A stretch of 64,000 bases of DNA from an uncultured Candidatus Saccharibacteria bacterium (GTDB lineage: Bacteria; Patescibacteriota; Minisyncoccia; Phycocordibacterales; JAKFXT01): positions 1,281-65,280 of the forward strand of contig CAYLPX010000002.1 of assembly GCA_964385825.1 (NCBI GenBank), in the 5' to 3' direction. Position 1 is the stretch's first letter. The number at the start of each line of letters is the position of its first letter. Positions 4,085 through 33,064 of this stretch are shown here, piece by piece. The translations under genes were made by a program, and so were the position numbers. The notes under the pieces were generated by a model, which saw only the letters and a list, made by a program, of their open reading frames with translations, did no database searches and was not told the origin of the DNA.

Positions 4085-4783
4085 TTAGTTGGTTGAAGTT
4101 ACTGCCTTTGGAGACTTACGGGTACGGATGGTTTCGAGAGCCTTGATAGTAGCGCGAGCATTGTTGATACCGTTCTTACTGCGAGAGAAAATCTTGCTGG
4201 TTACATCAGTTACCCCTCCAAGTTCAAGTACACTTCGCACAGCTCCTCCAGCTACAAGTCCGCGACCACGGCTTGGCACCAACATAGCAACTGAAGCTGA
4301 ATACTTAGCCTCAACATCATGAGGGATGGAACTATTCTTAGTAAGAGGAATGGTGATCATGTGCTTCTTTGCATCACGAAAAGCTTTTTCAATTGCTCCA
4401 GCTGTGTCCCCTGCCTTACCGGTTCCAACACCTACCTTACCTTTACGGTTTCCTGCTACAACCGCAACAGAGAAACTCATACGACGTCCACCGGCAACTA
4501 CACGAGTCACGCGACGGAGTGAGATAATCTTCTGGTCAAACTCTGGCTTTACACGTTCTTCACGACGATTGCCGCGGCGTGCTCCAGGACGTCCTCCCTT
4601 GCGAGTATCACGCTGTGTATTACGAGGGCGAAACTCAGGATTAGCAGCTGTTTTTGAAGCTGGCGCTCCTTCAGCAACAACTTCAGGTGTAGCCTCTTCC
4701 TCTGCCATAGTAAGAGGCGTAGCTTCAGCCACAACATCTGCTGCTGTCTCTACTGTTTCAGTTGTAATAATTTCGTCATTCAT
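4085..4783 (-). CDS. rpsE: 30S ribosomal protein S5 with low-complexity N-terminal extension
   Basis: The S5 core (VTRVVAGGRRMSFSVAVVAGNRKGKVGVGTGKA) is preceded by about 75 aa of acidic or Ala/Thr-rich extension. It directly abuts rplO, so there is no L30 gene. Confidence 0.85.
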   Translation of the reverse strand: MNDEIITTETVETAADVVAEATPLTMAEEEATPEVVAEGAPASKTAANPEFRPRNTQRDTRKGGRPGARRGNRREERVKPEFDQKIISLRRVTRVVAGGRRMSFSVAVVAGNRKGKVGVGTGKAGDTAGAIEKAFRDAKKHMITIPLTKNSSIPHDVEAKYSASVAMLVPSRGRGLVAGGAVRSVLELGGVTDVTSKIFSRSKNGINNARATIKALETIRTRKSPKAVTSTN

Positions 4784-4786
4784 ATA

Positions 4787-5149
4787 TTAAAAATTGAGTC
4801 CTCCCTTACGTGCCCCCTCTGCCACTGCCTTCACATTTCCGGTATATAGGAATCCGCCGCGATCAAAGACTACTGTTCCTACCTTCTTTGCGGTAAGTGC
4901 CTTAGCAATCTCTTCACCTACACGGAAAGACTTTTCAAGCATAGTCCCCTTCTTGTCTTTAAGTGAGGTTGCAGAAGCAAGTGTAACACCTTTTATGTCA
5001 TCAATCGCCTGCGCGTAAATATAACGATTGGACTTAAAGACTGCAAGACGAGGTGTTGTAGCAGACCCCTCCATGTGCGATCGACTCCGATTGTGACGTC
5101 GGATACGAGCGAGTGTTTTTGCATTAGTTGTAGTTTTAACGTAAGCCAT
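4787..5149 (-). CDS. rplR: 50S ribosomal protein L18
   Basis: 120 aa; basic N-terminus ARIRRHNRSRSH; operon position. Confidence 0.85.
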   Translation of the reverse strand: MAYVKTTTNAKTLARIRRHNRSRSHMEGSATTPRLAVFKSNRYIYAQAIDDIKGVTLASATSLKDKKGTMLEKSFRVGEEIAKALTAKKVGTVVFDRGGFLYTGNVKAVAEGARKGGLNF

Positions 5150-5164
5150 AAATAAAAAGTGGGA

Positions 5165-5698
5165 TTATACAGATTTCTTACCTTCCTTACGGCGGATAAC
5201 CTCATTGCGATAACGGAATCCCTTACCCTTGTATGGTTCTGGTTTCTTAAGCGCGCGAACTGAAGCAGAGAATGATCCGACCTCTTCTTTGTTAATACCA
5301 GAAATGGTAATAATGTTCTTTTCAGCCTTAACCGCAAGTGAAGCAGGTATTGGTACATGTACAAGATGAGAAAAACCAAGTGCAAGAATAAGTTCTGCCC
5401 CCTTCACTTCTGATTTAAAACCTACTCCTTCAAGAATAAGCTCCTTAGTGTATGGAGTATTAACACCCTGCACCATGTTCTTAATATGAGAAGCCGTTGT
5501 TCCCCAGAGAGAAATAGTCTGCTTATCCTCTTTCTTAGGACTTACCTTCACATGATCTCCCTCAACAATAATATTGAGCTCTGGACGAAAATCCCGAGTG
5601 AGTTCACCCTTAGGACCCTTAACCACAACAGTAATCCCAGAAACAGAGACTGTGGTTCCAGTTGGGATTCCGATAAGTTGTTTGCCGACGCGACTCAT
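5165..5698 (-). CDS. rplF: 50S ribosomal protein L6
   Basis: 177 aa. Starts MSRVGKQLIGIPTGTTVSVSG, like L6 (MSRIGKxPI). Two-domain L6 pattern. Confidence 0.9.
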   Translation of the reverse strand: MSRVGKQLIGIPTGTTVSVSGITVVVKGPKGELTRDFRPELNIIVEGDHVKVSPKKEDKQTISLWGTTASHIKNMVQGVNTPYTKELILEGVGFKSEVKGAELILALGFSHLVHVPIPASLAVKAEKNIITISGINKEEVGSFSASVRALKKPEPYKGKGFRYRNEVIRRKEGKKSV

Positions 5699-5722
5699 AA
5701 TGTTGAATATAAATATAGAAAA

Positions 5723-6115
5723 TTACCAGATTGAAAAGAGAGCCTCTCCACCGACCTTTTCCTTACGAGCCTCACGATCAGTCATAAGCCCCCTTGGAGT
5801 TGAAAGTACCATAATTCCCTGTCCGAACTTCACTGGGCGAATGTCGCGCACACCAAAGTACACACGCTTACCAAGCTTACTTACACGCTTAACTCCGCGG
5901 ACCTCAGGCTTAGTACCTTCGTACTTTACAGCAACCTCTAGATACTTCTTCACCTTCTTACCTTTTTTCTCAAAGGCAGTAATGAATCCCTCACGAAGTA
6001 GGATCTCCGCAATAGCCTGCTTCATCTTTGAGTGAGGTACGACAACAGTCGCCTTCCCTGCCATAGAAGCATTCTTAAGACGCGTTATGAAGTCTGCAAT
6101 AGGATCGCTTACCAT
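5723..6115 (-). CDS. rpsH: 30S ribosomal protein S8
   Basis: 130 aa; [21 protein letters not shown] matches the S8 N-terminus (DPIADMLTRIRNA). Confidence 0.9.
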
Positions 6116-6294
6116 GATGATTTTTTAATTCCTGGAATATTTCCATCATTAGCTAACTCGCGGAAACAAATGCGGCAAAGGTCAAAGTCACGCATATATC
6201 CACGCTTTCTTCCGCAACGAAAGCAACGATGAGTAGCCCGAGAAGAGAACTTCGGGGTCCGAGTTGAACGTACTACTGTTGATGTTTTTGCCAT
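6109..6294 (-). CDS. rpsN: 30S ribosomal protein S14 type Z (zinc-binding)
   Basis: 61 aa with CxxC...CxxC ([20 protein letters not shown]). Confidence 0.9.
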
Positions 6295-6475
6295 TGTGTA
6301 ATGTAGCTAACTACCACCAAGGATTTCTTGATGATTTTACTTGTTTTTTGGTAACCCAGCCACTAAAGAAACGGTGGTTTCTCTCGCGCTCCAGCATTAC
6401 CTCCAACAAAAAAGGCACTAAGTGCTTAGAGAGGATATTAGCAAGGATTATAGGGGGTGTCAAACAGGAGAACTT

Positions 6476-6501
6476 GTAGGGACAAACCGTAGGGACAAAC
6501 C
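6476..6501 (+). repeat. perfect tandem direct repeat gtagggacaaacc x2
   Basis: Read directly from the sequence: gtagggacaaacc gtagggacaaacc. It lies about 80 bp upstream of the island ORF at 6579. Confidence 0.9.
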
Positions 6502-6578
6502 TAAGAAATCTAGCTATTTTACAAGTGGTTTGCTAGAGTGCAGCCAGCTGTAAACATCCACCAATCGAAGGAGGTCGC

Positions 6579-7004
6579 ATGATCTACCAAGTAGGCAGTC
6601 ACACCTTCACTCCCGGTCTCTACATGAAACTGAAGACGGGTGAGCTTTTTCTCTTCCACCACGCCGTCCAAAACAGCCGCAAGGGCACCGGGGAGCCAGG
6701 TTCGACCAAGATGGTATATGTCTACTCGAACATTGCCGACGGGGACTTCATCTACCGACATCTTCCCTACTCACAGCTTCTTGCACCCAGCATCGCATTG
6801 CAGCTCTGCGACATGTGCAACCCAATGGACAAAGCGCTTGTAAGGATAGTGTACGATGCCTTCATGCAAAATACTGTTTTCGCGCGAAATTTTGCAAAGC
6901 CATTCGCCGAGTGGGCGAGCATGCACCGTATCCCGCTTTCGGTAAGCACCTCGATTGCAGGGATTCTGCATTTCGACACCCACCCCATGTTTCATGGGGT
7001 CTGA
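6579..7004 (+). CDS. hypothetical protein on GC-rich island, antisense to the ribosomal operon
   Basis: 141 aa ORF preceded by AGGAGG (gaaggaggtcgcATG). It has high GC and high GC3, unlike its neighbours. A GC-rich terminator follows. Confidence 0.5.
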   Translation: MIYQVGSHTFTPGLYMKLKTGELFLFHHAVQNSRKGTGEPGSTKMVYVYSNIADGDFIYRHLPYSQLLAPSIALQLCDMCNPMDKALVRIVYDAFMQNTVFARNFAKPFAEWASMHRIPLSVSTSIAGILHFDTHPMFHGV

Positions 7005-7010
7005 CTCATC

Positions 7011-7051
7011 CCCCCCCCCGCCGCGGAGTACCGCGGCGGGGACTATTTTTT
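7011..7051 (+). terminator. GC-rich hairpin plus T-run after the island ORF
   Basis: cccccccccgccgcggagtaccgcggcggggac followed by tatttttta. Confidence 0.65.
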
Positions 7052-7060
7052 ATATTCCTA

Positions 7061-7103
7061 AAACAAAAACTCCTCCCTAGTTTAGGGAGGAGTTTTTGTT
7101 TTG
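7061..7103. terminator. bidirectional intrinsic terminator immediately downstream of rplE
   Basis: aaaacaaaaactcctccctagtttagggaggagtttttgtttt: a perfect 10 bp stem with A/T runs on both sides. It falls between rplE and rpsN, which are normally co-transcribed. Confidence 0.75.
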
Positions 7104-7104
7104 C

Positions 7105-7662
7105 TTATTTCTTTGCAGCTTCTTTCTTAAAGGGAAAACCTAAGTGATCAAAGAAGGCCTTAGCTTCAGCGCGAGTCTTGGCAGTTGTTACAATAGTGAT
7201 AGCAAGACCGAATACATCTTTGATTTCTTCATCCACCACTTCTGGGAACACTACATGCTCCTTAAGACCGATGGTCATGTTACCGATATTGTCTACTCCA
7301 GAAGCATTAATGCCACGAAAGTCCTTAGTACGAGGAAGAGACACGTGGAGCAGTTTATCTAGAAAACCGATCATGCGGCTTCCGCGAATGGTTACCTGAT
7401 ATCCAATAGGGTCTCCAATACGAGTCTTGTAGCTCGCAATAGCTTGCTTAGCCTTACGAACTACTGGCTTCTGACCAGTGATTTTGGCAAGACGATCAGC
7501 AACCAGTTCTAGCTTTTTCTTATCCTTAAATGAACCAGTTCCAACTGAAACCACCACCTTAGTAAGACGAGGTGCCTGCATCACGTTCTTGTAGCCGAAC
7601 TGATCCTTCATTACCTTGAAGGATTCTTCACTTAATGTTTTTACGCTTTTGATAGTTGCCAT
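7105..7662 (-). CDS. rplE: 50S ribosomal protein L5
   Basis: 185 aa; L5 family (MQAPRLTKVVVSVG...); position between rplX and rpsN. Confidence 0.9.
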   Translation of the reverse strand: MATIKSVKTLSEESFKVMKDQFGYKNVMQAPRLTKVVVSVGTGSFKDKKKLELVADRLAKITGQKPVVRKAKQAIASYKTRIGDPIGYQVTIRGSRMIGFLDKLLHVSLPRTKDFRGINASGVDNIGNMTIGLKEHVVFPEVVDEEIKDVFGLAITIVTTAKTRAEAKAFFDHLGFPFKKEAAKK

Positions 7663-10860: not shown

Positions 10861-11027
10861 GAAAAATGTAAGTTTTTGGTTGGCTCAGCTTCTTTTTTGG
10901 CAATTAAAAAAACCTTATCGCTAAGGTCTCCAAGGCGCCAACCATGGAAGCTATAGGAGTAGACTATCAAACCCATACAAATTGTCAAACCCCCGCCATC
11001 CCCCCACCAAAAGTAGTAAATCATAAA

Positions 11028-11055
11028 TTGACAAAAACTATAAATGTGTTAGATT
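11028..11055 (+). promoter_or_regulatory. sigma70-like promoter candidate for the island ORF at 11126
   Basis: TTGACA (11028-11033), a 16 nt spacer, then TAGATT (11050-11055). A hairpin plus T-run follows at 11061-11087 (ccggttcacttaggtgaacgttttttg), and the SD and ATG follow that. Confidence 0.4.
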
Positions 11056-11125
11056 AAAAGCCGGTTCACTTAGGTGAACGTTTTTTGTTCCTCACAACGC
11101 CCCCCTAGGGGGAGAAAGGTAGCAC

Positions 11126-11695
11126 ATGCTTAGCAGGAAAAAATACCCCACCCTCGTGGGACTCATGGCCACCATTCCGGCTGTGAAAGTGGAAGTGGAG
11201 CAACTTCTCGCGGAGAAGTCCACTCCGAGCGGCGCCGCCGACAGGGCCGTGCACCAAATCGGTGCGGTGTTGGCCAAGCACGGCATGCTGAACGGCTTCG
11301 CGAAGTTGGCAGCAACCCCTCCGACCGCGCAAAGTACGGGTTCGGACGCTACCAGCTTCGGCTTCCCGATCGGCAACGATCGGCATGAACTCACCCGCCT
11401 GCGATTGCTTGCGGCCAAGGCTGAGGGCAACTACGATGAAGTGCGCGCCGAGGCCATGGCCACGCTTACGAACTGGGGAGGCAAGAGCCCCAGACGAGTC
11501 ACGGCCGGCCTCATCAGCCAAATCGTGGAAGGCACAGGGCGGCCCCGCTTCATTGCGGAACTGCTTGCCGCCAGCCCCACCGAACAGCATGGCGAGTTGC
11601 TGAAGCATGTCGCAGGCTACTACAGCAGAATCGGCCTGCGGGCTTCGCCCAAAAAGCTCCTCGCCGAGGCGCGGCAGGCAGGCTACCAGATCTAA
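11126..11695 (+). CDS. hypothetical protein on GC-rich island, antisense to the ribosomal operon
   Basis: 189 aa ORF with very high GC3 (gcc, ggc, ctg codons). SD ggggagaaaggtagcacATG. A strong terminator follows. The product is Ala/Leu-rich and helical. Confidence 0.5.
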   Translation: MLSRKKYPTLVGLMATIPAVKVEVEQLLAEKSTPSGAADRAVHQIGAVLAKHGMLNGFAKLAATPPTAQSTGSDATSFGFPIGNDRHELTRLRLLAAKAEGNYDEVRAEAMATLTNWGGKSPRRVTAGLISQIVEGTGRPRFIAELLAASPTEQHGELLKHVAGYYSRIGLRASPKKLLAEARQAGYQI

Positions 11696-11726
11696 GCTCT
11701 AGGCCGAGTAGGCCATGTTCTTCTCC

Positions 11727-11765
11727 GTCGGGAACCCTTCGTGGTTCCCGACTTTTTTATTTTTA
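11727..11765 (+). terminator. intrinsic terminator of the island ORF
   Basis: gtcgggaacccttcgtggttcccgac followed by ttttttattttt. Confidence 0.75.
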
Positions 11766-11897
11766 GAAAAATATTTGTAACCTTTTTTAAAATCTTCTAG
11801 TTTCATTAATACAAATTGATACTTGATGATTGCTAAGCCGAAAGTAGTTTAGCAGTCGCCAAGTGGAAATTTGGAAGTTTCCGTTTTGAATGCAAAT

Positions 11898-11925
11898 CCC
11901 CGCCGGCGCATGCGCGCCGGCGGGG
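11898..11925. repeat. perfect 28 bp GC palindrome
   Basis: ccccgccggcgcatgcgcgccggcgggg, sitting at the 3' end of the minus-strand island ORF. Confidence 0.85.
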
Positions 11926-11941
11926 TGTTCCGATGGCACCG

Positions 11942-12373
11942 CTACGAATGAGGTGCCGAACTGGTGTTGAAGAGTTCGGGGTCCGGCCAATCAAGCTTCG
12001 CCCCATCCAAAAGCGGCAAGGCCGCCTGGAAAAGATGGGCGATGTTGAAACACGCCGACTGGACGTCTTTTCCTGCCGTGTCGTCCTGCGCATCCTTCTG
12101 CAGAACGCGTATGAACATCTCCCCCACACGTATCCGACAGCGCCCCTCCTCACCTCGGCTCAAAACGCCTTGCCGAAAGGAAGCGGTGAGGATCTGGAGC
12201 AGTGTCTTGATTTCGTCACGATTCGGCCACGCTGAAGACTGAGCCCCAACCGATACCCTCTTCGTGAGTTGCTCAAGACGGTCCAGAATGAGCTCAACCA
12301 GAGTGTCCGCGACGCTCTTGATCGGCCGCTGCACGTACGCAACAGCCTCATTTATTTCAGGGTTTTCGTGCAC
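11942..12373 (-). CDS. hypothetical protein on GC-rich island
   Basis: 143 aa ORF with a GTG start preceded by GGAGGTG. High GC. The overlapping alternative ORFs on both strands make the coding call uncertain. Confidence 0.4.
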   Translation of the reverse strand: MHENPEINEAVAYVQRPIKSVADTLVELILDRLEQLTKRVSVGAQSSAWPNRDEIKTLLQILTASFRQGVLSRGEEGRCRIRVGEMFIRVLQKDAQDDTAGKDVQSACFNIAHLFQAALPLLDGAKLDWPDPELFNTSSAPHS

Positions 12374-12435
12374 GGGGCACCTCCAAGAAAAAAGGGTTAT
12401 ACAGCTCGCTTGAGCTTATACTCCACTAGTAAAAA

Positions 12436-12476
12436 GTCAAACGCCGCGGGCCTCCCGCGGCGTTTGACTTTTTGTT
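12436..12476. terminator. bidirectional intrinsic terminator immediately downstream of rplB
   Basis: gtcaaacgccgcgggcctcccgcggcgtttgac, flanked by aaaaa and tttttgttt. Confidence 0.75.
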
Positions 12477-12490
12477 TAATTTTTTCCGAA

Positions 12491-14968: not shown

Positions 14969-15135
14969 TCTATAAAAAATGCGACCCCATAAAACTATAG
15001 TGTCGCCAGTAGAAAGGTCTCAAATACTAACCGAGGCCTTTTTGTCTGGCGGAACTTTCTCTCGGAATCCGAAAGTGTTCACAGAACGCAATAGAAGGCA
15101 TATTACACGACCCTAGAAAAAATGCAAATGTTAAA

Positions 15136-15158
15136 GCCGAGGCGCAGCGCGCCTCGGC
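15136..15158. repeat. GC-rich palindromic hairpin
   Basis: gccgaggcgcagcgcgcctcggc followed by cttttgggg. Confidence 0.7.
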
Positions 15159-15176
15159 CTTTTGGGGAACACCCCG

Positions 15177-15491
15177 CTACACACGAGGATTCTTGGGAAG
15201 CTGCGCGGAAAAGACGATAGGGGCTCCGCGTCCTCGACGAGGGGGCTTTTGGGAAACTCCAGCCCCCTCCTTTTTCGCAGCATTCTTCTGTGCCCGGGCC
15301 GCCCTTTCCGCCAACACCTTTGTCACATGTTGGGGTGCCAACACTTGCCCGGTTGCACTTTTCCATTTCTGATCTATCGGACTTAACCGATAGACCGTTC
15401 CATAATGCACGAGTTCATCTTTACGCATAAAAGCCCTCTCTAAACAATTCTTAAGAAACCTTATCACAACTATCTTTTTCACAAAAATCAA
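15177..15491 (-). CDS. possible small basic protein on GC-rich island (uncertain)
   Basis: 104 aa ORF. Its C-terminal half is GC-rich and basic (RAQKNAAKKEGAGVSQKPPRRGRG). The overlapping alternative frame means it could be noncoding. Confidence 0.25.
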   Translation of the reverse strand: MIFVKKIVVIRFLKNCLERAFMRKDELVHYGTVYRLSPIDQKWKSATGQVLAPQHVTKVLAERAARAQKNAAKKEGAGVSQKPPRRGRGAPIVFSAQLPKNPRV

Positions 15492-15570
15492 TTGACGTAT
15501 ATGAAGGATGAGGAGTACGCTTATTATTGGGTTAGTTCACCACACTGAAGTACCAACCAGGAGAAGAGCC

Positions 15571-15927
15571 ATGCCAGGAAGAGTGGTTGATACCTATAGT
15601 TCCCGCAGCATAGATGAGCTGCTTGCCATGATGACAGCAGACGTGGTCAATCGACCAAGGCCTACTGCTTCCCCCCTTTTTCAAGCTATTGAACACCGCG
15701 GACTACATCGCGGTGAAAAAGGAAAACCCGACAAGGTAACCCTGGCAGGGATCCTGAAGTACGCCAGGGCCCAACTGGAACAGGAAACTGAGACCAAGAT
15801 ACTTCTCGCCTTCGCCAAGCTCATCAATTCAATCCTAGACGACGTTGCCGATTTCGATGATGGGCTGCCGCGGCAATCCTTCGAGAAGGCTGTTGCGAAA
15901 ATTCCGCCACACTTGGCACAGAACTGA
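15571..15927 (+). CDS. hypothetical protein on GC-rich island, antisense to the ribosomal operon
   Basis: ATG at 15571 preceded by AGGAGA (ccaggagaagagccATG). It is the internal start of the tracked ORF 15508..15927. High GC; terminators follow. Confidence 0.45.
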   Translation: MPGRVVDTYSSRSIDELLAMMTADVVNRPRPTASPLFQAIEHRGLHRGEKGKPDKVTLAGILKYARAQLEQETETKILLAFAKLINSILDDVADFDDGLPRQSFEKAVAKIPPHLAQN

Positions 15928-15939
15928 TCTGTGCCAGCC

Positions 15940-15970
15940 CCCCCGCCCTAAGGCGGGGGTCGTTTTGTGC
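15940..15970 (+). terminator. GC hairpin plus T-run after the island ORF
   Basis: cccccgccctaaggcggggg followed by tcgttttgtg. Confidence 0.6.
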
Positions 15971-15986
15971 CACGAACTTCAAAAAA

Positions 15987-16029
15987 CAAAACCCCTCCCT
16001 CGCGTCGCGAGGGAGGGGTTTTGTTTTTT
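15987..16029. terminator. bidirectional intrinsic terminator immediately downstream of rpsJ
   Basis: aaaacccctccctcgcgtcgcgagggaggggttttgtttttt. Confidence 0.75.
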
Positions 16030-16042
16030 GATAATGCTTTAT

Positions 16043-16451: not shown

Positions 16452-17651
16452 TTAGGCAACGATCTTAGTAACAACTCCAGCACCAACTGTCTTACCTCCT
16501 TCACGGATAGCGAGACGCTGCTTTTCTTCAAGAGCAATAGGAGCTACAAGCTTTACCTTAAAGGTAACGGTGTCTCCCGGCATAACCATTTCAACACCTT
16601 CCTTAAGGGTTACTTCACCAGTTACGTCAGTAGTACGTACGTAGAACTGAGGCTTGTATCCAGAGAAGAATGGAGTGTGACGTCCTCCTTCCTCCTTACT
16701 TAGAATGTACACCTCAGCCTCAAACTCGGTGTGTGGATTAACAGATCCTGGCTTTGCAAGCACCTGTCCACGATGGATATCATCTTTCTTAAGACCGCGA
16801 ACAAGGAGTCCAGCATTATCTCCCGCCTGACCTTGCTGAAGACTCTTGTTGAACATTTCAACACCTGTAACGGTTGTCTTTACCGTGTCCTTAAGACCGA
16901 TAATTTCCACTTCTTCACCTACCTTGATAGTACCGCGTTCGATACGACCGGTTACTACCGTTCCTCTTCCTTCAATAGAGAAGATGTCTTCAACTGGCAT
17001 AAGGAATGGCTTATCAAGTTCACGTTCTGGAACTGGAATGTAGGTATCAAGCGCGTTAACGAGCTCAAGTACCTTCTTTGCCCACTCATCATCAGCAGAG
17101 GTTGCTTCAAGAGCCTTAAGACCTGATCCACGGATAACTGGGGCGTTAGCTCCATCAAATCCCTGTTTGGTCAAAAGCTCACGAACCTCTTCTTCCACAA
17201 GATCAAGCATATCCTTGTCATCCACCATGTCACACTTGTTGAGGAACACGATAATGCGAGGTACACCCACCTGCTTTGCAAGGAGCACGTGCTCACGAGT
17301 CTGAGGCATCACACCATCAGTTGCAGCTACCACAAGAACAGCACCGTCCATCTGAGCGGCACCAGTAATCATGTTCTTAATGTAGTCCGCGTGTCCTGGG
17401 GCATCAATGTGCGCATAGTGACGGGTGTCGCTAGCGTACTCGTTGTGCGAGATATTAATTGTAATACCGCGAGCCTTTTCTTCCGGTGCTGAGTCAATGT
17501 CATCAACTCCCTTCATTTTAACTTCTTTACCTGCAAGGTGAAGAACGTTAAGAATAGCCGCAGTAAGAGTGGTCTTACCGTGGTCTACGTGACCGATAGT
17601 ACCTACGTTTACGTGAGGCTTACTACGATCAAAAACTGCTGCTTCTGCCAT
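16452..17651 (-). CDS. tuf: elongation factor Tu
   Basis: 399 aa; [18 protein letters not shown] and NKCD GTPase motifs. Confidence 0.95.
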
Positions 17652-17946: not shown

Positions 17947-20900
17947 TTAGTGCTGACTTGCCTTAAGATCTTGAATAAGCTTAGCGAGGGCTGAAATGGC
18001 ATTTGCCATTTGATCCAACCGTTCGTCCTTGAGTGACGCCCCCACTGAACCAAAATCAGTGGCAGGAACAGGAGCAGCAGGAATTCCAATGTAGCCAATG
18101 TACTTGTTTGCACTAGCTCCTGTTGTAAAGCCCCAGAAAACCAAGTTTTGACCCCTATAAGCACTGGCGTCAAAACTAAAGCCGTGATAAAGCGTGGCCG
18201 TACTGCAAGCACTTGCTACAGACTGGGTCGATAAGAGGTTTGCATTTCCTGATCCAACAGCTTGATTGCCAACATAGGCTCCAAAAGTAATAGACTGATT
18301 AACTCCTTTTTCACACATCCAGCCCGTTACTATTCCATCCTGAGTAACATTATCAATAGAGCCCATAACAACCGGGGTGACAGCTGGAGCCACTGGAGCC
18401 TGAACCACTGGTGCTGGAGCCACTGGAGCCTGAACAGCTGAGGCCACCACCTTAACTGGAGTATTTGTTCTGAATAAATATGTATACCCATTAGAAGAGC
18501 CCGGTATTTTTTCAGTGAGATACACAACATCATAATCTCCAGCAACTGCTGGCGCTTTTATTGTTCCACTTCCTTGTAATTGCGCTTGAGTATAAACACC
18601 TGAGTACGAGAGGGCTGGATCCCACTGTTGTCCTGCCTTAGCAAACACAACTAAGTTAGATGGGCCAAGATATGAACTAGACAAATCCCTAACATCCCAC
18701 GTGACTGTAACAAGACCACCTGGCGCAACAGAGGCTGGGGTTGCGGTTAGTTTTAGTGGAATACCTGATTTTGCAGAAACGGGAGAGGATAAGGCACTCA
18801 CATTTCCCGCCGCATCATATGCTTCTACTGTATACGTATACAGAGTATCTGGGGCAAGTGGTCCATCAAGATAATTAAAATTATATGTTGTTACCCCTGT
18901 AATGTTTCCTGTGTCATACCCCGTCACACCCAATGCTGTACCGAGTGTTTTTACCAAAACGCCATTACGGTATATTTTATATCCTGCAACTCCGACATTA
19001 TCATCAGACCTGTTAACCACAACAGTCATGTTTAGATTATTTTCCGCCTTACTAAAGGCTGCTACAAGGGCAATACTTGGAGTAGTTGGGGCTTGTGTGT
19101 CACCAATAGTAGGATTTGTGGTTACAGTAAGAACATTTTTAAACCTCCTCAATTCACTTGGGGCGTTTTCTTGAGTCTGTCCTGTAAGGGGCCATATGGT
19201 ATACGTCGAAGAATATAAAACAATATCATATACACCCGGGGAAGTTGGGGCGTTTTGCTTAGCAGATCCTTTGAGTATGTTGTTCATTGAGATTAGAGGG
19301 AGTCCATTTTGAGCATCTGAGTTATACCCACGGGCAACAAAGCCCAGAAAAGGTTTCGACGGGCTACCGATAGTAGAGATGTCCCAGTCTACGGTAACCA
19401 AAGCGCCCGGCACCACAGAATTAGGAGATATCATTACTGATACTGGATTAATTTCAGTTGATATGAGGAGTGGAGATGATGCCATGGACATGTTTCCAGC
19501 AGCATCTAATGCCTTTATTTCATAATAATAACTTGTGCCTTTTGTAAGGGTACTGTCTGTATAGGTTGTAACGTTGCCAAGTGTGGTAACAAGTACTCCC
19601 CCACGATATAGCTTGTACCCCGTTACTCCCACATTATCAGTTGAAGGAGACCATGAAATAGTTACTGATGTCTGAGTGATACCCGACGAAACTACATTTG
19701 ATGGAATAGATGGTGCTTGAGTATCAGCAGTACCCACTGGACCAGTAATCCTTGTTGTAATGGGCATAATAGAAGACCTTGCTTCATTTCCTCTTGCATC
19801 GAACGCTACAACAATAAAATTATATTTCGTTCCGGGTGTTAAGCCGGATATTGCAATTGATGTAGATGTAGTAGTCCCAACAATAATATCATTTGCCGCA
19901 TTTGGGTCGGAGGAACCTTGCAGTACCCTGTACCCTACTACTCCTACATTATCCGTTGAAGCGGCCCAGGAGAAATTGAACCCTGTCTGTGAAAGACCTG
20001 ATGAAGATAATCCTGTTGGAGCAGTTGGTGGTTGTGTATCTGGGTTTGCACTAGTTGTTATAGTAAGGGGTGATGATTGTGATGAAAGATTCCCAGATGT
20101 ATCCTCAGCAGCTACTGTAAAACTGTATATAGTGCTGGGGGTTAACCCTAAAACGGTATAAAAGTTACCATTAATAACAGCAATCTGTTTTCCATTTTGA
20201 TATAATCTGTAATCTTTAATACCAACATTATCTGTTGATGATTGCCATTGGATAGTTGCGACCGAACCGAGCACATTGTATGAATTTACATTAGTTGGTA
20301 CCGATGGAGCTTGAGTATCATTATTAGCATTAGAAAGCAGTCCTATCTCTGGCGTAGCCACAAGAAAGGCTGTTGACTGAGAAGAAGTGTTACCAGCACT
20401 ATCCTGAGCGCTAACCGTAAAGCTGTAATTGTTTCCAGCAGAAAGACCGGTAACTGCATATGAGGTTGTTTGGGAAGATCCAATTTGAACACCATTCTTA
20501 TAAACCTTGTACACAACGGCCCCACTGTTTCCAATTGAAAATGAAGCGTTCCATGAAAGAGTTAAACTGGTTTGGGTTAAGTTAGATGCACTCAGATTTT
20601 GTGGAATTGATGGACCCTGAGGAACTAAAGCCTGATCCCGAAATCCTACACTACTAGTAGCTGCCACAGGCGCTACGGGAGCAGCAACGTTAGAAGCAAC
20701 TACACTTGCACTAGTTGTGACTGTAAGGCCAGATGACTGTGGAGAAACGTTACCAGCAGCATCAACCGCAGCAACAGAATACGTACCGGTAGTATTTGGC
20801 TGGAAACCAGAGAGCTGAATCTTATTTGAAACCGAAGAGCCAATAAAAGTTCCATTTCTAAAAATCCTATACCCTGTCACCCCAACATTATCAGAAGGGG

Positions 20901-21474
20901 TCGTCCACGTAAGACCGAAACTTACTGTTGTGATGTCAAAAGCACTGAGATTAGTTGGGATGCTTGGTGCTTGGGTATCAGAGGCACTGTTTGAAGCAGC
21001 TGGGGCAACTACAGATGAGGAAGTTGCTGCTACTGATTGCTGATTGTTCGATACCCCATTGTTTGCTGTGGCCACTGGAACCACTGCACCTGAAACGGTG
21101 TTTGAAACTGGTTGAGCAGAAGCCGAGGATGAAGAGCCGCAACTAAGCTCTTTTACCTTCGCCCGCGTAACCGGCCCCACATTACCAATAGGCGAAATAT
21201 TGTTAGCACTCTGGAAAGCTTGAACTGCCTTTTTAGTGAGTTTGCCGAAATAACCTGTTGGGTCAGCATCTAGATAATTAGTTTGAGCTAAGTACACCTG
21301 TAATTCTGTAACGTCTCCTCCCGTATTTTTGTCTCGTGAGCCGAGGACTAGGTTGTGTGTAATGGTAGTACATTCTACTTGTACAGCAGCATCGTTCACT
21401 AAGTCTTGAACTATGGCTTGTGCATTAGCTAGTAGTGGAGCTACTAAGATACTGCTAAGAGCAAAAGATACCAC
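17947..21474 (-). CDS. giant secreted surface protein (1175 aa): N-terminal peptidoglycan-binding-like domain plus multiple fibronectin type III repeats
   Basis: A signal peptide is followed by a PG_binding_1-like segment (TGYFGKLTKKAVQAFQSANNISPIG). Then about 8 FN3-like repeats with the recurring DTQAPSxPxNL ... SDNVGVxGYxxYRNG pattern. Confidence 0.8.
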   Translation of the reverse strand: MVSFALSSILVAPLLANAQAIVQDLVNDAAVQVECTTITHNLVLGSRDKNTGGDVTELQVYLAQTNYLDADPTGYFGKLTKKAVQAFQSANNISPIGNVGPVTRAKVKELSCGSSSSASAQPVSNTVSGAVVPVATANNGVSNNQQSVAATSSSVVAPAASNSASDTQAPSIPTNLSAFDITTVSFGLTWTTPSDNVGVTGYRIFRNGTFIGSSVSNKIQLSGFQPNTTGTYSVAAVDAAGNVSPQSSGLTVTTSASVVASNVAAPVAPVAATSSVGFRDQALVPQGPSIPQNLSASNLTQTSLTLSWNASFSIGNSGAVVYKVYKNGVQIGSSQTTSYAVTGLSAGNNYSFTVSAQDSAGNTSSQSTAFLVATPEIGLLSNANNDTQAPSVPTNVNSYNVLGSVATIQWQSSTDNVGIKDYRLYQNGKQIAVINGNFYTVLGLTPSTIYSFTVAAEDTSGNLSSQSSPLTITTSANPDTQPPTAPTGLSSSGLSQTGFNFSWAASTDNVGVVGYRVLQGSSDPNAANDIIVGTTTSTSIAISGLTPGTKYNFIVVAFDARGNEARSSIMPITTRITGPVGTADTQAPSIPSNVVSSGITQTSVTISWSPSTDNVGVTGYKLYRGGVLVTTLGNVTTYTDSTLTKGTSYYYEIKALDAAGNMSMASSPLLISTEINPVSVMISPNSVVPGALVTVDWDISTIGSPSKPFLGFVARGYNSDAQNGLPLISMNNILKGSAKQNAPTSPGVYDIVLYSSTYTIWPLTGQTQENAPSELRRFKNVLTVTTNPTIGDTQAPTTPSIALVAAFSKAENNLNMTVVVNRSDDNVGVAGYKIYRNGVLVKTLGTALGVTGYDTGNITGVTTYNFNYLDGPLAPDTLYTYTVEAYDAAGNVSALSSPVSAKSGIPLKLTATPASVAPGGLVTVTWDVRDLSSSYLGPSNLVVFAKAGQQWDPALSYSGVYTQAQLQGSGTIKAPAVAGDYDVVYLTEKIPGSSNGYTYLFRTNTPVKVVASAVQAPVAPAPVVQAPVAPAVTPVVMGSIDNVTQDGIVTGWMCEKGVNQSITFGAYVGNQAVGSGNANLLSTQSVASACSTATLYHGFSFDASAYRGQNLVFWGFTTGASANKYIGYIGIPAAPVPATDFGSVGASLKDERLDQMANAISALAKLIQDLKASQH

Positions 21475-21607
21475 TGCGAAACCTTGGACCCACGAAAAAT
21501 TTTAGTAATCATTGTGATTAAATACGGAAGAAAACATTATCTTAATAAGTATCTATAATTAAACCATAGGAAGATGGCGGAGTAAAACGAGCTTAGAGTA
21601 TAAGAAA

Positions 21608-21644
21608 CCCCCTACAAACCCGCTGGTTTGTAGGGGGTTTCTTT
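21608..21644 (-). terminator. intrinsic terminator downstream of the 171 aa gene
   Basis: ccccctacaaacccgctggtttgtaggggg, flanked by T-rich sequence on the minus strand. Confidence 0.65.
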
Positions 21645-21653
21645 AAAAACTTA

Positions 21654-22169
21654 CTATTTAACCTCAAAAAGAATGTCAAAATCATCCACATTATCAATAG
21701 CTCGCCACTTAGTCTTATCCCCCCTCCTCACAAATCCCTGTTCAAGTGAACGGGTCATGCCAAACTCCTTAATAACTGCAATCTCAGTAGTAGTTCCAAG
21801 GGAAGTACACACAATACCTGCCAATTCCCCCTTTAAATACTGGTAATTGGTGCCATTTACCACTTCACAGGTCCCATCATAGTGTCCCGCATCATACTTA
21901 GTACCGAGCTCGTTTAATGTAACAAGGGTTACCGGCTCCTCATGGTCTTCAAAACGAGGTAACTTAGTCAACTTCCAACTAAAAGAATCCCTGGTAATTG
22001 GCACAGGATCTTTTTTGAAACTAGATTTAAGAAAAGAGGAAATGTCGTCATTTTGCCAGACAAAATAATTTGTCCCTACAAGGAAAAAAAGGAGAAGGAT
22101 AAGAGCTCTATTATTTCGTATTCGCTCCTCATTCTTTCGTACAACTTCTTCAATACTCCTTTTACTCAT
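21654..22169 (-). CDS. membrane-anchored hypothetical protein
   Basis: 171 aa with an N-terminal TM anchor (ALILLLFFLVGTNYFVW). Located between the two giant genes. Confidence 0.5.
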   Translation of the reverse strand: MSKRSIEEVVRKNEERIRNNRALILLLFFLVGTNYFVWQNDDISSFLKSSFKKDPVPITRDSFSWKLTKLPRFEDHEEPVTLVTLNELGTKYDAGHYDGTCEVVNGTNYQYLKGELAGIVCTSLGTTTEIAVIKEFGMTRSLEQGFVRRGDKTKWRAIDNVDDFDILFEVK

Positions 22170-22200
22170 GTGGGTTAATTATACATACAAATATACAATT

Positions 22201-22228
22201 AACAGCTCACGTTAAAGCGTGAGCTGTT
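22201..22228 (-). terminator. hairpin downstream of the 2831 aa giant gene
   Basis: aacagctcacgttaaagcgtgagctgtt. Confidence 0.6.
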
Positions 22229-22250
22229 AATAATTAGGCTATGCCAGTAA

Positions 22251-25200
22251 TTATTTCAAGGTTTTAATAAAAGCTCGTGTTCCCGCACCAAAGAAGCCAC
22301 TCCCCCTCGTAAGCCCATTTGGGGTTAAAATCTCTGCTGTGTGAGCTTCTTGGAACTTTGCTAAAGCACGAGAGGTTGCAACACCAAAATAGGTAGTCTC
22401 ATTGCCGAGAGAACCTGCCCCACTACTTGCTACAGTAAATCCATGGATATTAAGGAATTGTTGAAGTAGTCGTACGTCCTCGCCGCGCATACCAACTTTT
22501 AGATTACGGGTAAATGAGCTGGCTGCACTAGTTTGCACTTGTGTTCCAACGGCAGAAGTGGGGGTGGCACTAACAGCCCCGCCACTTGCCGCATTTAATT
22601 TTGCACGAGTAAGCGGCCCCACTAAGCCATATCCTTCAACTGAGCTGTCACAGCCTAATCCTTGTGCACACTGGAACTTTCCAACAGCTGCTTTTGTGGC
22701 TACTCCATAAAAACCACTATCACTCCCAACTTCAAGATATCCAGTTTTAATCAAGAACTGTTGGAGCAACCGCACTTCATTGCTACGAAGCCCCACATAC
22801 AGAGGGTTTTTAAACACCGTGACATATACTACTGCCCCGCTACCAGTGCCAGTACTACCTGTTGATCCGCCAACTGCTCCTATGGCACCATTACCAAGGG
22901 AAAGTGATACACTTCCTCCTGCGCCCGCGTTACTTACTGTACCAGAAGAAGATCCTCCGCTACTTACAGAACCTCCCCCACTACTTCCCGAAGATCCCTT
23001 TACAGGAACTGTTACTGAAGTGGTGGTCATGTCTGAGAAATCACCAGTATCGTTGACTGAGAAAATACCATAATAGTATGTTCGACCCTCATTTACATTC
23101 ACATCAATCATGGTTGGTAGTGTTGTAGTTCCAACCACAATAGCCGCTGCATCATTTGGACCTGTTAGCGTTGAGTCACTTCTAATAACCTTAAAATACA
23201 CCGAACCATCAGGATAATCAGCTGCTGACCAGGAAAGGATAACACTACCAAACGTAACAGCTACAAGATTCGGCTTTGGTGGCAAAGCTTTAGTCTTCAC
23301 CGTGACTACGTTCGAAATCGGAGAGAGATTACCACTGTCGTCTTTTGTACGAACACCAATTGAATACGTAGTGCCCGGTAAAAGATTCTGAAGTTTTAGT
23401 GATTCAGTTAAACCAGCAGCTTCTGGTGCCTTAACTGCATTTGAAGGAAGTAGTGTAGCTGCTGTCCAGTTATCAACTGATATTACGTCATTTGCAATAT
23501 ACCGAACTTCATAAGCAGTTGGTTTTACGAACTGACCTGAGTTTGCTGGCGCACTCCAAGCCAATTGGAGTGCCTTTGCAGCTCGCTCTTTAATATTGAG
23601 GTTGTTAATCGGGGCTAAATTGCTATTAGCTGAAGCAAGAGTGGTGGTCTTAAAGGTACTGTCTTCCGAAACAAGTGGTGCTGTTACCCCATCAGTAATA
23701 CGCACCCTAAAGTGATATAGCGTCCCCGGAAGAAGATTTGGAATAGTCACCACACTACTCATAGCAGCAGCTGCTGATTGCACTTGTCCATATGAAGCTG
23801 TAATTCCGTATTCAACAGTTGCGGTAACTACTCTATCCGCTCCAATTGAAATAACGGCTCCGGTACTACTTGCTGAGGAATTCATACTAAGTAACTTAGG
23901 TGGAGTAACAACAATATTAGAGACAATTACTGAAACATTGCTTGATACTGTCTTATTACCAGCCGCATCACGCGCCTCAGCGGTCAAAACATGAGCGCCG
24001 TTTGTAACTGATTGAGTATTAAAGCTAAAAGTATATGGAGCTGAGACATCCTCAGTAAGTGCCTGTCCATCAACCTTAAGCACTACCCCAACAACGCCAA
24101 CATTGTCAGTTGCAACAGCTGTAACAGCGATAGTCCCGCTCAAACTACCACCAAGATTTGAGTTTGTGATAGATACTGATGGTGCTTGTGTATCACCCGC
24201 GGAAGACCCACCATTATTTACTGGTACAACTGGCACTACAGGTGCTGGTTGAGCTGGATTCCCAGGATTCGCAAAGTTTGGTTGAGTATACCCATTAGTA
24301 AGAGCCGAGGCACGAAGCTTAAACTGACAAGTGTTACCACATGAAAGATTGGAAAGTGTAACTGATTGTGCTGTGCCAGCAGATGCAACTTGAGGCATGT
24401 TTGGCACATTAGTGGCTGCCCAGAAAGCTATATTACTTGCAGGATCGAACTCATAGGTAAACGTGAGGCTATTAAAGTTAAGGTTTGGAACAATATTTTT
24501 ATTTGCATACTTGAGCTGGTACACATCCATACCCGCTGGGGCTGTCCAGGATATCCGGTATGTTCCACCACCAAGTGGTGTAACGTCGAGCGGAACAAAA
24601 CTTACTTTTACATCACCTGCATGAGCCACGTCATAAAGAAAACGTAGATTACCAATATCAGAGTTAGCGACGGTGTCTTGGTCCTTATCAACGTTAACTG
24701 CAAGCTGCTTACCAAGTGTGAGGAATGTTGAATCGCCAGTTGCTTCATAGGCAATAGATGCGCCACGACCAAAATCATAGGTACGTCCATCCTTTGACGT
24801 GTCTGGAACTGTTACATCATAGTCATATGCCACCCACGGCTTACCATTATTCGCAGGGTATCGATAACTCTCTTTTAGGTTAAAGTATCCAAGACCCTCA
24901 AGGAAATCCATGAGATCTTGTTTGGTATAACTTAGTCCTGGATAAGCAGCGTTCTGGTAGACATGCCCCTCTGGCGTATAGCGATACACTTCATAGAGCG
25001 TGGCCGGGAAATACGTTGTTGAGAACATAGAGTGCGATGCTTGTGGGTAGCCATTTACCGGAGCTGCAGTATAACCACGAGTAAGATTGCGTCCCACATC
25101 AGGCTTACCTGGATACTTAGTCTCGGTTGAAAGGAGATAATCTACATACCTATCAATCTTTGTTAGGTAGCGAGTGTTCCCTGTCAGCATGTAAGATTGT

Positions 25201-30931: not shown

Positions 30932-33064
30932 CTACTGGCGACTTTCAATAATATCCTTAGCAACGTTCGCTGGGACAATATCGTAATGGTCAAACTCCAT
31001 AGTAGATGTACCACGTCCCTGAGTAAGTGAGCGGAGAGTGGTGGTATAACCGAACATTTCAGAAAGTGGCACTTTAGCCGAAACTACTTTAAGCCCTGAA
31101 CGATCTCCCATACCCTCAATCTGAGCACGCTTACTTGAAAGATGTCCTGAAATATCTCCCATAAACTGCTCTGGCACTAGTACTTCCACCTTCATAATAG
31201 GCTCAAGGATAACTGGGCCAGCCTTTTGTGCAGCCTCTTGGAGAGCCTGAGAAGCCGCGATCTTGAAAGCGATTTCTGAAGAGTCCACGTCGTGATATGA
31301 CCCATCGTAGAGCTCACAAGAAACATCTACCAGCTTAAAGTGCGCCACAATTCCGCGTTCCATCCCTTCCTTAATACCCTTTTCAACCGCTGGGATGTAT
31401 TCCTGAGGGATAACTCCTCCCTTAATGCTATTTACGAACTCAAAACCTTCAGAACGCTTAGTGTTACGAGGAAGTTCCTCTGGGGCTGGTTCAAGTGGTT
31501 TAATCTTAATCTTAACGTGTCCGTACTGTCCGCGACCTCCTGTCTGCTTCACATACTTAACTTCAGCTTCTGCAGGACGAGTAATAGTTTCTTTGTATGC
31601 TACCTGTGGCTTACCAACATTAGCCTCAACCCCGAACTCACGCTTCATGCGATCAACAATAATTTCAAGGTGAAGTTCACCCATTCCAGAAATAATAGTT
31701 TCGTTAGTTTCAGCGTCCGATGCTATACGGAATGTTGGATCTTCATCAGATAGTTTCTTAAGAGCCACACCCATTTTCTCCTGATCAGCCTTTGTTTTCG
31801 GTTCAATACGAAGAGAGATAACCGGCTCAGGGAATTTAATTTCTTCAAGAATAATAGGGTTCGCTTCATCACAAAAGGTATGTGAAGTACGAGCACTCTT
31901 AAGTCCTACCGCTGCTGCAATTTCTCCAGCGTACACCTTCTTCACTTCTTCGCGATCATTAGCTTGGAGTCGCACAATACGTCCCAAACGTTCCTTTTCT
32001 CCCGTGGTTGCATTGTAAATATATGATCCAGCTTCAATAGTTCCTGAATACACACGGAAGAAAGTAAGTTGTCCTACGAAAGGATCAGCCTGAAGTTTAA
32101 AAGCGAGGGCACAAAATGGCTCCTTGTCATCTGCATGGCGGAAAATTTCTTCGCCGGTGCGAGGATCAAGTCCCTTAATAGCTGGAATATCGAGTGGAGA
32201 AGGTAGAAAATCAACCACCGCATCAAGTACGAGCTGTACTCCCTTATTCTTAAGAGCAGACCCTGCGTATACTGGGAAAATTTCATTAGCAATAACGGCC
32301 TTGCGAAGCAGTGCCTTAAGACGAGGAAGATCAATTTCTTTTCCTTCAAGGTATTCAGTCATGGTAGCCTCATCGTGCTCCACGATACGTTCAACAAGCT
32401 CATGACGATACTTTTCAGCATCAGCTTTAAGATTTTCTGGTATTTCAGCTTCACGAATAGTGTTTCCCATTTCACCCTCAAAGTAGAAAGCTTTCATTTT
32501 AAGAAGGTCGATAACTCCCTCATGTGCATCTTCTTCACCAATAGGGATCTGGAGACGAACTGCCTTTTTATTGAGGCGATCAAGAATACTTGCGTATGAT
32601 CGTTCAAAAGATGCACCAGTACGATCAAGTTTGTTGATGAAACAAATACGTGGCACTGAAGCTTCGTCAGCATAACGCCAGTTAGTTTCTGATTGTGGCT
32701 CTACTCCTGCAACGCCGTCAAACACCACCACAGCTCCGTCTAGCACGCGAAGCGAGCGCTTCACTTCCACGGTGAAATCAATGTGTCCTGGGGTATCGAT
32801 AATATTGAAACGATACTTGGTATCATCCTTAGTCGCATCAGTCTTACCCCAAAAACAAGTGATGGCAGCAGCCGTAATAGTAATACCGCGCTCACGCTCC
32901 TGTTCCATCCAGTCAGTCACAGTCGCCCCATCGTGCACTTCTCCGATTTTATGAGTCATTCCTGTGTAGTAGAGAATGCGCTCAGAGGTAGTAGTCTTGC
33001 CCGCATCAATGTGGGCAATGATACCAAAGTTACGGACGTGCTCTAATGGATAATCGCGGTTCAT
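30932..33064 (-). CDS. fusA: elongation factor G
   Basis: 710 aa; GTPase motifs AHIDAGKTT and DTPGHIDF; EF-G domains IV and V. Confidence 0.95.

Follow-up and report, generated by a model that had tools for sequence, protein, structure and literature searches.

The 64-kb window analysed here (the whole stretch of DNA under study) carries on its minus strand, between positions 2359 and 16414, the genes for SecY, L15, S5, L18, L6, S8, S14, L5, L24, L14, S17, L29, L16, S3, L22, S19 and further proteins, with a gap between S14 and L5 (ORF list; Pfam on identical contigs). This order is that of the classical S10-spc cluster. The GC content of the host is ~44%, and the nearest genomes are MAGs that bear the labels Candidatus Paceibacterota or Taylorbacteria, or the automatic label 'Saccharibacteria'; the host is an uncultured, Paceibacterota-like member of the Patescibacteria/CPR. 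Comparisons were made mainly with a sister species, whose L5 protein is 93% identical and which is represented by the strains L034 and L045. The gap between S14 and L5 is occupied by an open reading frame of 141 codons (ORF141), which is encoded on the strand opposite to its neighbours rpsN and rplE; it converges on the rplE unit and diverges from the rpsN promoter. The features of the interval are the following, the promoters and terminators being predictions:

6109..6294, minus strand: rpsN, coding for S14 of the short 61-aa zinc-ribbon type (ORF list; PF00253 on the L042 orthologue; 95% identical to the sister protein), the gene with which the downstream r-protein transcription unit is predicted to begin
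6295..6428, minus strand: native rpsN 5' leader of ~130 nt, in the flank aligned with the sister, with a local hairpin AGAGAAAC-CACC-GUUUCUUU
6435..6463, minus strand: predicted rpsN promoter, with -35 TTGACA (6463-6458), a 17-nt spacer ending in TG, and -10 TAATAT (6440-6435)
6476..6501, no strand assigned: perfect tandem of GTAGGGACAAACC x2, between two divergent promoters
6531..6539, plus strand: predicted extended -10 of ORF141, TGcTAGAGT, conserved in three alleles and resembling the clade rpsN -10 consensus
6568..6575, plus strand: Shine-Dalgarno sequence AAGGAGGT, 3-4 nt before the ATG of ORF141
6579..7004, plus strand: ORF141, an orphan protein-coding gene of 141 aa with an ATG start (codon-position composition; sister homologue; dN/dS)
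7011..7051, plus strand: predicted intrinsic terminator of ORF141, with a C10 run, an 11-bp all-GC stem and a T6 run
7060..7102, both strands: predicted bidirectional terminator, A-tract-CTCCTCCCTA / TAGGGAGGAG-T-tract, a perfect palindrome with 20-nt arms
7105..7662, minus strand: rplE, coding for L5 (ORF list; Pfam PF00281 and PF00673; homologues), predicted last gene of the upstream r-protein unit

The same DNA was found on 10 contigs from several samples. The nine that were aligned are identical except for the length of the C-run (9-14 nt) and for a noisy low-coverage assembly around the hairpins of the junction, at which contig ends recur in the assemblies. The r-proteins of the window species and of the sister species are 93-97% identical, and a blastn comparison with the sister locus L034 aligned both flanks at ~80% identity. 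The alignment of the left flank (4182-6472) ends at window position 6472 and resumes at 7091, which delimits a non-native segment of 618 nt (6473-7090). A previous reading of this DNA from its letters alone (the sequence-only reading) had described the whole interval 6295-7104 as an island. Non-native DNA is indeed present, but only from 6473 to 7090; the ~180 nt at 6295-6472 are conserved rpsN leader and promoter, and are considered native because the flank alignment to the sister reaches position 6472.

ORF141 is a genuine protein-coding gene under selection. Indeed (i) its composition differs by codon position (GC3 0.67, GC1 0.52, GC2 0.38; chi-square p = 2.7e-5), and the order GC3 > GC1 > GC2 is typical of a coding sequence that comes from a background GC-richer than the host (overall GC of ORF141, 0.525; GC3 of host genes, 0.395 +/- 0.089), (ii) a homologue of 135 aa (P0122, encoded by ORF135, L034 4279-4686) occupies the same rplE-rpsN junction in the sister, where it is likewise antisense to the operon, and matches ORF141 with E = 1e-16 in an exhaustive HMMER search of 1.84 billion representatives, with 37% full-length identity and only two gaps, one of five residues and one of a single residue, and (iii) 39 of 405 nt differ between the alleles of L034 and L045 (6/4/29 at the first, second and third codon positions), i.e. 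29 synonymous and 10 non-synonymous differences (dN/dS 0.07, binomial p = 1.5e-12), and this signal of purifying selection is frame-specific and strongest in the annotated frame. The status of ORF141 as a gene stands on these three lines of evidence. An open frame of at least 141 codons from the given start has, moreover, a chance probability of ~0.001 at this composition. The sequence-only reading had proposed an AGGAGG-driven ORF of 141 aa at 6579..7004, and had named failure in codon-periodicity tests as a ground for abandoning it; the coordinates proved exact, the composition by codon position differs as given above, and the coding assignment is supported by the syntenic homologue with its purifying selection.

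The gene appears to be a complete monocistronic cassette, with its own promoter, Shine-Dalgarno sequence, ORF and terminator. A predicted -35 element (TAGCTA, 6511-6516) is weak, and a simple consensus scan did not pick up a promoter for ORF141. The motif TTTGCTA(G/A)AGT, which includes the putative extended -10, is the same in all three alleles (also in the longer form GCTATTT...TTTGCTA(G/A)AGT) while its surroundings diverge, and it resembles the TGCTAGnAT consensus of the rpsN promoters of the clade. The upstream element TTTGCTAGAGT is conserved with the sister. At the position of the Shine-Dalgarno sequence, which was confirmed at 6568-6575 as previously noted, the sister alleles have GAAGG and AGAGG. 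Downstream of the ORF, the hairpin reported earlier at 7011-7051 is present and its stem could be refined to 7016-7041 (CCCCGCCGCGG-AGTA-CCGCGGCGGGG, with the C10 run at 7011-7020 before it and ACTATTTTTT after it). This stem is kept base for base after the sister ORF135 and ORF134 (100% conservation), with the loop inverted (TACT vs AGTA), and the C-run before it varies from 9 to 14 nt across assemblies. Both 7016-7041 and 7060-7102 display the GC-rich stem-loop and U-tract expected of rho-independent terminators, and the two hairpins together have a predicted folding energy of -57.9 kcal/mol (z = -10.2 vs shuffles). Thus, inside the non-native 618 nt, the upstream element, the Shine-Dalgarno sequence and the C-run with its GC hairpin are conserved with the sister despite 63% protein divergence. 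The conservation of the promoter and terminator sequences is an observation; their activity is predicted from these signatures.

The second hairpin is a palindrome (arms 7060-7079 and 7083-7102) with an A-tract on one side and a T-tract on the other, and because of this design it reads alike on both strands. It probably ends the rplE unit on the minus strand and backs up the terminator of ORF141 on the plus strand, in agreement with the initial proposal that it is shared with rplE: as T-tracts follow the palindrome on both strands, it is predicted to be bidirectional. A palindromic hairpin of the same design and of another sequence lies at an equal distance after rplE in the sister. On the other side of the cassette, the predicted rpsN promoter scores 10/12 in a consensus scan and has, in addition, an extended -10 (TGcTAATAT); its hexamers and the TG are unchanged in the sister. 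Relatives show a terminator hairpin, then TTGAC-N17-TGCTAGGAT (present in many of them), then a leader upstream of rpsN, and a promoter function of this element is inferred from these sequence features. The fold of the rpsN leader in the window is unexceptional (z = -1.4). The leader belongs to no Rfam family, and a search of 6200-7200 against Rfam returned only sub-threshold hairpin noise. A covariance model of the leader RNA was built from relatives, with AAUC...GAU closing pairs and two covarying helices; it finds 11 relatives (E 2e-16 to 6.5e-6), and the window and the sister are unmatched at E <= 10.

From the bidirectional terminator after rplE and the separate promoter and leader of rpsN, the cluster is predicted to comprise at least two transcription units, and would be split at this point. 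The gene order L14-L24-L5-S14-S8-L6-L18-S5-L15-SecY is the same as in the spc operon of the E. coli type (rplN-rplX-rplE-rpsN-rpsH...). However, the latter is one transcript, whereas at least two units with an antisense gene between them are predicted here. In E. coli, the spc operon is autoregulated by S8 at rplE. A literature search yielded nothing relevant on the L5-S14 junction or on an S14 leader in CPR bacteria.

The same junction was then compared across relatives. In a census of 23 related loci, sampled by L5 similarity and with gaps extrapolated, the median L5-S14 gap is 766 nt and 13 of 19 gaps are longer than 300 nt, while in two more loci no S14 is present over about 4 kb. The remaining junctions between L16 and S5 all have medians of at most 33 nt, and none exceeds 300 nt except L24-L5 in 2/22. 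The cargo at L5-S14 differs between relatives and includes PG-binding proteins, type IV pilin-like proteins, a LigT 2'-5' RNA ligase, a Rce1-like protease, a 1060-aa NHL propeller and orphan ORFs. Even the two sister species differ: the sister island is 1.49 kb long and has three ORFs (a low-GC membrane-like ORF of 129 aa, ORF135 and an ORF of 113 aa), and that of the window is 0.62 kb long with one ORF. The L5-S14 junction is therefore an accessory-gene hot spot across the sampled relatives of the clade. It resembles the accessory hot spots ('regions of genome plasticity') found at operon boundaries or terminators in having a fixed site between core genes, unrelated cargo of atypical composition, and a content that differs even between sister species. 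It departs from them in lying inside the normally contiguous S10-spc cluster, in having no integrase, tRNA or transposase mark, and in holding here just one gene, an antisense orphan that has expression signals of its own. No integrase or transposase ORF was detected between 3 and 11 kb of the window, so that neither a mobile element nor an integron was recognised there, and no target-site duplication, terminal inverted repeats or flanking repeats beyond chance were found.

The product of ORF141 had been described as having no obvious family, and this was borne out by searches of Pfam, PHROGs, NCBIfam, PADLOC and the PDB. The family has two members only in searches of about 5.8 and 1.8 billion proteins; in the larger set, a word-indexed search matched ORF141 to itself only. 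No Pfam family matched ORF141 at E <= 10 or P0122 at E <= 1, and ORF141 has no PHROGs, NCBIfam or PADLOC model and no sequence match in the PDB. A profile of ORF141 and P0122 found no further protein members, and scans of viral contigs and metagenome loci were empty. No phage match was obtained and the plasmid matches are at chance level (E ~0.5). ORF141, P0122 and the neighbouring island ORFs have no defence or toxin-antitoxin match in PADLOC or Pfam, and no island ORF has a paralogue within the window or the fetched loci. Two further proteins matched by HMMER (P0123 and P0124) are highly repetitive and were judged spurious as homologues because their scores are sums over repeats. In a tblastn search, ORF141 weakly matched the Fe-S region of AcnD, in the reading frame of the annotated acnD gene (CxxC, RNF and PLVV motifs; 37 bits, database E ~0.5). 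An assignment as aconitase (AcnD/AcnA domain 3) was rejected because the motifs are not kept in the homologue, P0122 having lost the second Cys and the RNF; nor does the Pfam Aconitase model match.

The residues invariant between ORF141 and P0122 include H27, C77, D93, E111, H116 and the block AP....QLC.M.NPM...L.R.V.D.FM.N. AlphaFold2 models of ORF141 reach a pLDDT of 47.7 from the single sequence, and a pLDDT of 52 with a pTM of 0.51 from the two-sequence alignment. In the latter, the beta-rich N-terminal ~78 residues score 50-79 per 10-residue block and the helical C-terminal half less than 50. Foldseek searches of the model against BFVD repeatedly returned DUF1653 proteins (E 0.04-0.1), and an hhalign comparison with a DUF1653-like consensus aligned the PG-Y...G-L segment with E = 0.057 over only 24 columns. 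With low confidence, the fold may be an SH3-like N-terminal beta-barrel followed by a helical C-terminal half. The resemblance to DUF1653 (PF07866; PDB 3be3) is a lead and not a membership, ORF141 having no match to this Pfam family at E <= 10. Furthermore, in comparison with DUF1653 and other SH3-like small beta-barrels (eL14, KOW, bL19), ORF141 has an extra helical C-terminal half of ~75 residues, which carries the best-conserved motifs. By inspection, no signal peptide or membrane segment is present, and the product would be a cytoplasmic protein of ~16 kDa. The modelled barrel tentatively suggests a binding role; as a best guess, the product would be a small accessory or conflict factor that binds nucleic acids or proteins, and not a core component of the ribosome.

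The ORF has also diverged far more than its surroundings. Between the sister strains, the ORF and its promoter are 77-88% identical vs 96-100% around them, and within the sister the dS of the ORF is 0.46 (0.72 in the 5' half) vs 0.03-0.14 in the neighbouring genes. Between species, its dN is 0.6 vs 0.02-0.12 for the flanking r-proteins. As this peak of allele divergence is combined with strong purifying selection within the species, it suggests diverged allele lineages exchanged by recombination and not simple vertical descent, although a locally raised mutation rate could be an alternative. By its composition (GC3 0.67 vs 0.40), ORF141 may be of foreign origin. No donor lineage or mobility gene was found for ORF141, and the restriction of the family to two species limits comparative power. 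As a side observation, an antisense orphan at the rpsS-rplB junction (ORF189) follows the same pattern, being 38% identical to its syntenic counterpart in the sister.

The perfect 13-bp tandem at 6476-6501, an exact repeat as first described, lies at about -48 to -73 from the predicted start site of rpsN and -45 to -70 from that of ORF141. It is the top-scoring perfect short tandem in the window, where other perfect tandems of 9-10 nt x2 occur, and it is fixed in the 10 sampled population contigs. Copies of the 13-mer elsewhere had been suggested as something to look for; the sole other match in the 64-kb window has two mismatches and is at chance level. The sister has one degenerate copy, TAGGACAAAAAAC, adjoining the rpsN promoter: the site beside the rpsN -35 reads cTAGGACAAAAAAC-ATAAG and is followed by the terminator and body of the extra 113-aa gene and then by the ORF135 promoter, so that the copy and this promoter are ~480 nt apart with the 113-aa gene intervening. 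Because the single degenerate copy of the sister stays with the rpsN promoter, the tandem seems to have arisen in this lineage by duplication of 13 bp of native spacer beside that promoter and, if tied to anything, belongs to the upstream region of the rpsN promoter. When metagenomes were scanned for pairs of copies at most 30 nt apart, the 13-mer was found as the GTAG-headed 5' arm of REP-like hairpins on three unrelated contigs. REP/BIME elements are GTAG-headed palindromes recognised by RAYT transposases. The 13-mer shares the GTAG start and is identical to the REP-like 5' arm in the three contigs, but no complementary arm lies nearby, the 64-kb window has no other copy and no RAYT gene, and the sister has one degenerate copy; the tandem was not classified as REP because the window has no complementary arm.

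The sequence-only reading had regarded the tandem as a plausible operator, and a broader version of this idea would be that it is an operator or activator site through which one regulator controls the divergent ORF141 and rpsN promoters together. The perfect 2 x 13 bp repeat, its fixation in all 10 contigs and its symmetric placement at about -45 to -73 from both predicted starts, typical of class I activator sites, agree with such a role. Nevertheless, the single degenerate copy of the sister is cut off from the ORF135 promoter by the 113-aa gene and its terminator, the window holds no further copies, no regulator gene is adjacent, the 13-bp period is off the helical repeat, and the other short perfect tandems of the window are consistent with slippage. 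Joint control of the two promoters thus seems improbable, and an operator for ORF141 in particular is not supported, given the distance of the sister copy from the ORF promoter.

Taken together, these results are best explained, with a probability of about 0.7, by ORF141 being a real, lineage-restricted accessory gene, carried as a self-contained antisense cassette at an operon break in the S10-spc cluster, at a site that is a hot spot. According to this explanation, the upstream unit (...L14-L24-L5) would stop at the bidirectional palindromic terminator and the downstream unit (S14-S8-L6...) would restart at its own consensus promoter. DNA inserted at the break would have no polar effect on r-protein synthesis, because a terminator would shield one side of the break and a promoter the other. 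Tolerance of such non-polar insertions would explain why L5-S14, and only L5-S14, became the accessory hot spot of the clade. ORF141 itself would be of foreign origin, and its alleles would have been replaced by recombination. The feature would then be of an ordinary kind, namely lineage-specific accessory DNA at a permissive site, in an unusual place.

That ORF141 is not a gene at all, but a non-coding spacer, a decayed pseudogene (e.g. of aconitase) or a relic of a mobile element, is extremely improbable. It is true that the family is an orphan with two clusters only among billions of proteins, that the weak in-frame tblastn similarity to AcnD spans CxxC, RNF and PLVV, and that REP-like elements elsewhere have the 13-mer as their 5' arm. 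However, the frame-specific purifying selection and its dN/dS largely refute this explanation, the length of the ORF is kept at 37% identity, the aconitase-like motifs are lost in the homologue and Pfam Aconitase is unmatched, the gene is accompanied by neither a transposase or integrase nor a target-site duplication or terminal inverted repeats, and the 13-mer has no palindromic partner. If the gene is accepted, its position could reflect its function, the product being a lineage-specific ribosome- or RNA-associated SH3/KOW-like barrel (cf. eL14, bL19, OapB). Its presence at the same r-protein junction in two species fits with this, but the structural model is of low confidence, the gene runs antisense under a predicted promoter and terminator of its own, its product retains 37% identity between two species that share 93-97% in their r-proteins, none of the other relatives has the gene (they carry unrelated cargo at this site), and its GC3 is foreign; a ribosomal partner is therefore considered doubtful at best.

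A conflict gene (immunity, antitoxin, anti-phage or anti-host), whose alleles are kept by diversifying or balancing selection, is a less remote idea, although still an unlikely one. The alleles have diverged far more than the flanks and are mosaic in the 5' half (dS 0.72 vs 0.07-0.14) under strong ongoing purifying selection, which agrees with such a gene, as does the fast turnover of the islands between sister species, and ORF189, 38% identical to its sister counterpart, behaves alike. On the other hand, neither ORF141 nor its neighbours match PADLOC, Pfam, PHROGs or NCBIfam, the island of the window has no partner toxin gene, and no phage or plasmid homologues were found. A more far-reaching interpretation, which we regard as speculative and hold to be somewhat less likely still, would combine rplE-rpsN with the similar breaks of this genome at rpsS-rplB, rplC-rpsJ and fusA-tuf into a clade-wide landing pad in the translation super-operon of Paceibacterota; small antisense orphan cassettes would persist there as old allele lineages that recombine, with their conserved promoter and terminator flanks as recombination anchors, and would form a hidden conflict or host-interaction system within the genome's most conserved region, or else ORF141 would be a new lineage-specific SH3-barrel partner of the ribosome or of RNA.

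In summary, ORF141 is a validated two-member orphan family, alone of modest interest. For uncultured CPR bacteria, the r-protein super-operon is relied upon as the constant backbone on which phylogeny, binning and synteny are based. In one group of Paceibacterota, this backbone appears to be cut into separate units, and its L5-S14 junction systematically gathers strain-specific cargo. For assembly and annotation, this means that contigs break repeatedly at the L5-S14 hairpins and, for operon models, that the spc genes, expected to form one transcript, are here probably distributed over two or more units. For accessory genes, the junction shows where episymbiotic bacteria with tiny genomes keep genes of fast turnover.

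Besides the site of ORF141, the orphan gene between rplE and rpsN, the ribosomal protein cluster holds a second island at the rpsS/rplB junction (window 10861-12490), with two GC-rich orphan ORFs that each have their own GC-hairpin terminator, and a third island at the rplC/rpsJ junction (window 14969-16042). The features of these two islands are the following:

11028-11055, promoter TTGACA-16-TGtTAGATT (rpsS/rplB island)
11126-11695, + strand, ORF189, GC 0.63, GC3 0.75
11727-11752, GC-hairpin terminator of ORF189
11925-11898, GC-hairpin terminator of ORF143
11942-12373, - strand, ORF143, GC 0.57
12431-12473, A/T-flanked palindrome adjoining rplB
15177-15491, - strand, ORF104 (rplC/rpsJ island)
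15508-15927, + strand, ORF139, GC 0.51 (rplC/rpsJ island)
15940-15959, GC hairpin (rplC/rpsJ island)

Searches of Pfam and PADLOC returned nothing significant for the ORF189/ORF143 island and zero matches for the ORFs of the rplC/rpsJ island. At the equivalent site of the sister species (L5 93% identical), an antisense homologue of ORF189 is encoded (L036, 29-541; 38% identity). Another GC-rich ORF, of 152 aa, is found at window 36111-36569 (- strand), with a GC content of 0.62 against 44% for the genome; it has no match in Pfam and, given its Gly/Asp/Glu/Arg-rich translation, may not be a real gene.

Hairpins also mark the points at which the ORF141 locus is interrupted in assemblies. The C-run on the 5' side of the ORF141 terminator (window 7011-7020) varies from 9 to 14 nt among the assemblies carrying this DNA (L001-L010), a palindrome 58 nt past rplE is the exact end point of four independent sister-species assemblies, and one MAG contig stops at a GC hairpin 54 nt past the stop codon of ORF134, a sister-species homologue of ORF141. 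The corresponding sites in the sister species are L034 (about 4268-4279) and the contig ends of L036-L040 and L045. The variation of the C-run and the contig ends could reflect true heterogeneity or artefacts of hairpins and homopolymers; whichever the cause, assemblies of the locus are systematically broken by these hairpins.

Three unrelated metagenome contigs (L046, 359-395; L047, 4821-4866; L048, 9503-9599) contain REP/BIME-like hairpin arrays whose GTAG-headed 5' arm is the exact 13-mer of the tandem repeat at window 6476-6501, GTAGGGACAAACC. In the window this 13-mer stands in tandem without the hairpin.

In related Paceibacterota, the sequence between a consensus promoter and rpsN encodes a structured leader RNA some 110 nt long, at these loci:

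L022, 4443-4556; L031, 5290-5401; L018, 5675-5788; L025, 5334-5446
L021, 4731-4865; L029, 7058-7186; L030, 6792-6923; L027, 2401-2540
L020, 4888-4997; L028, 6298-6410; L017, 7959-8067

Its closing pairs, AUC...GAU, are invariant, and it has two helices; compensatory changes occur at 22 of the 26 predicted pairs in an alignment of eight sequences, and a search with its covariance model (R1) added three instances. No Rfam family reached the gathering score or a convincing E-value at these leaders, and a literature search found no matching paper. This leader is a candidate new ribosomal protein autoregulatory leader, perhaps responding to S8 or S14. Neither the window nor the sister species matches R1.

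No rRNA operon is present within the window; a solitary match of 82 nt to the bacterial 23S rRNA model (RF02541 positions 2130-2211; 53.8 bits, gathering score 50) is intergenic, between two ORFs assigned by inspection only:

42719-43198, + strand, 159-aa ORF, HIT-like
43266-43347, - strand, 23S rRNA match
43457-44575, - strand, 372-aa ORF, pgk-like

The str operon is also split, with cargo at window 17947-30746 between fusA (30932-33064) and tuf (16452-17651), namely two proteins of 2830 and 1174 aa that both contain fn3, Ig-like and PG_binding_1 domains, as well as an orphan ORF of 170 aa. The translation super-operon thus holds about 13 kb of cell-surface cargo between fusA and tuf.
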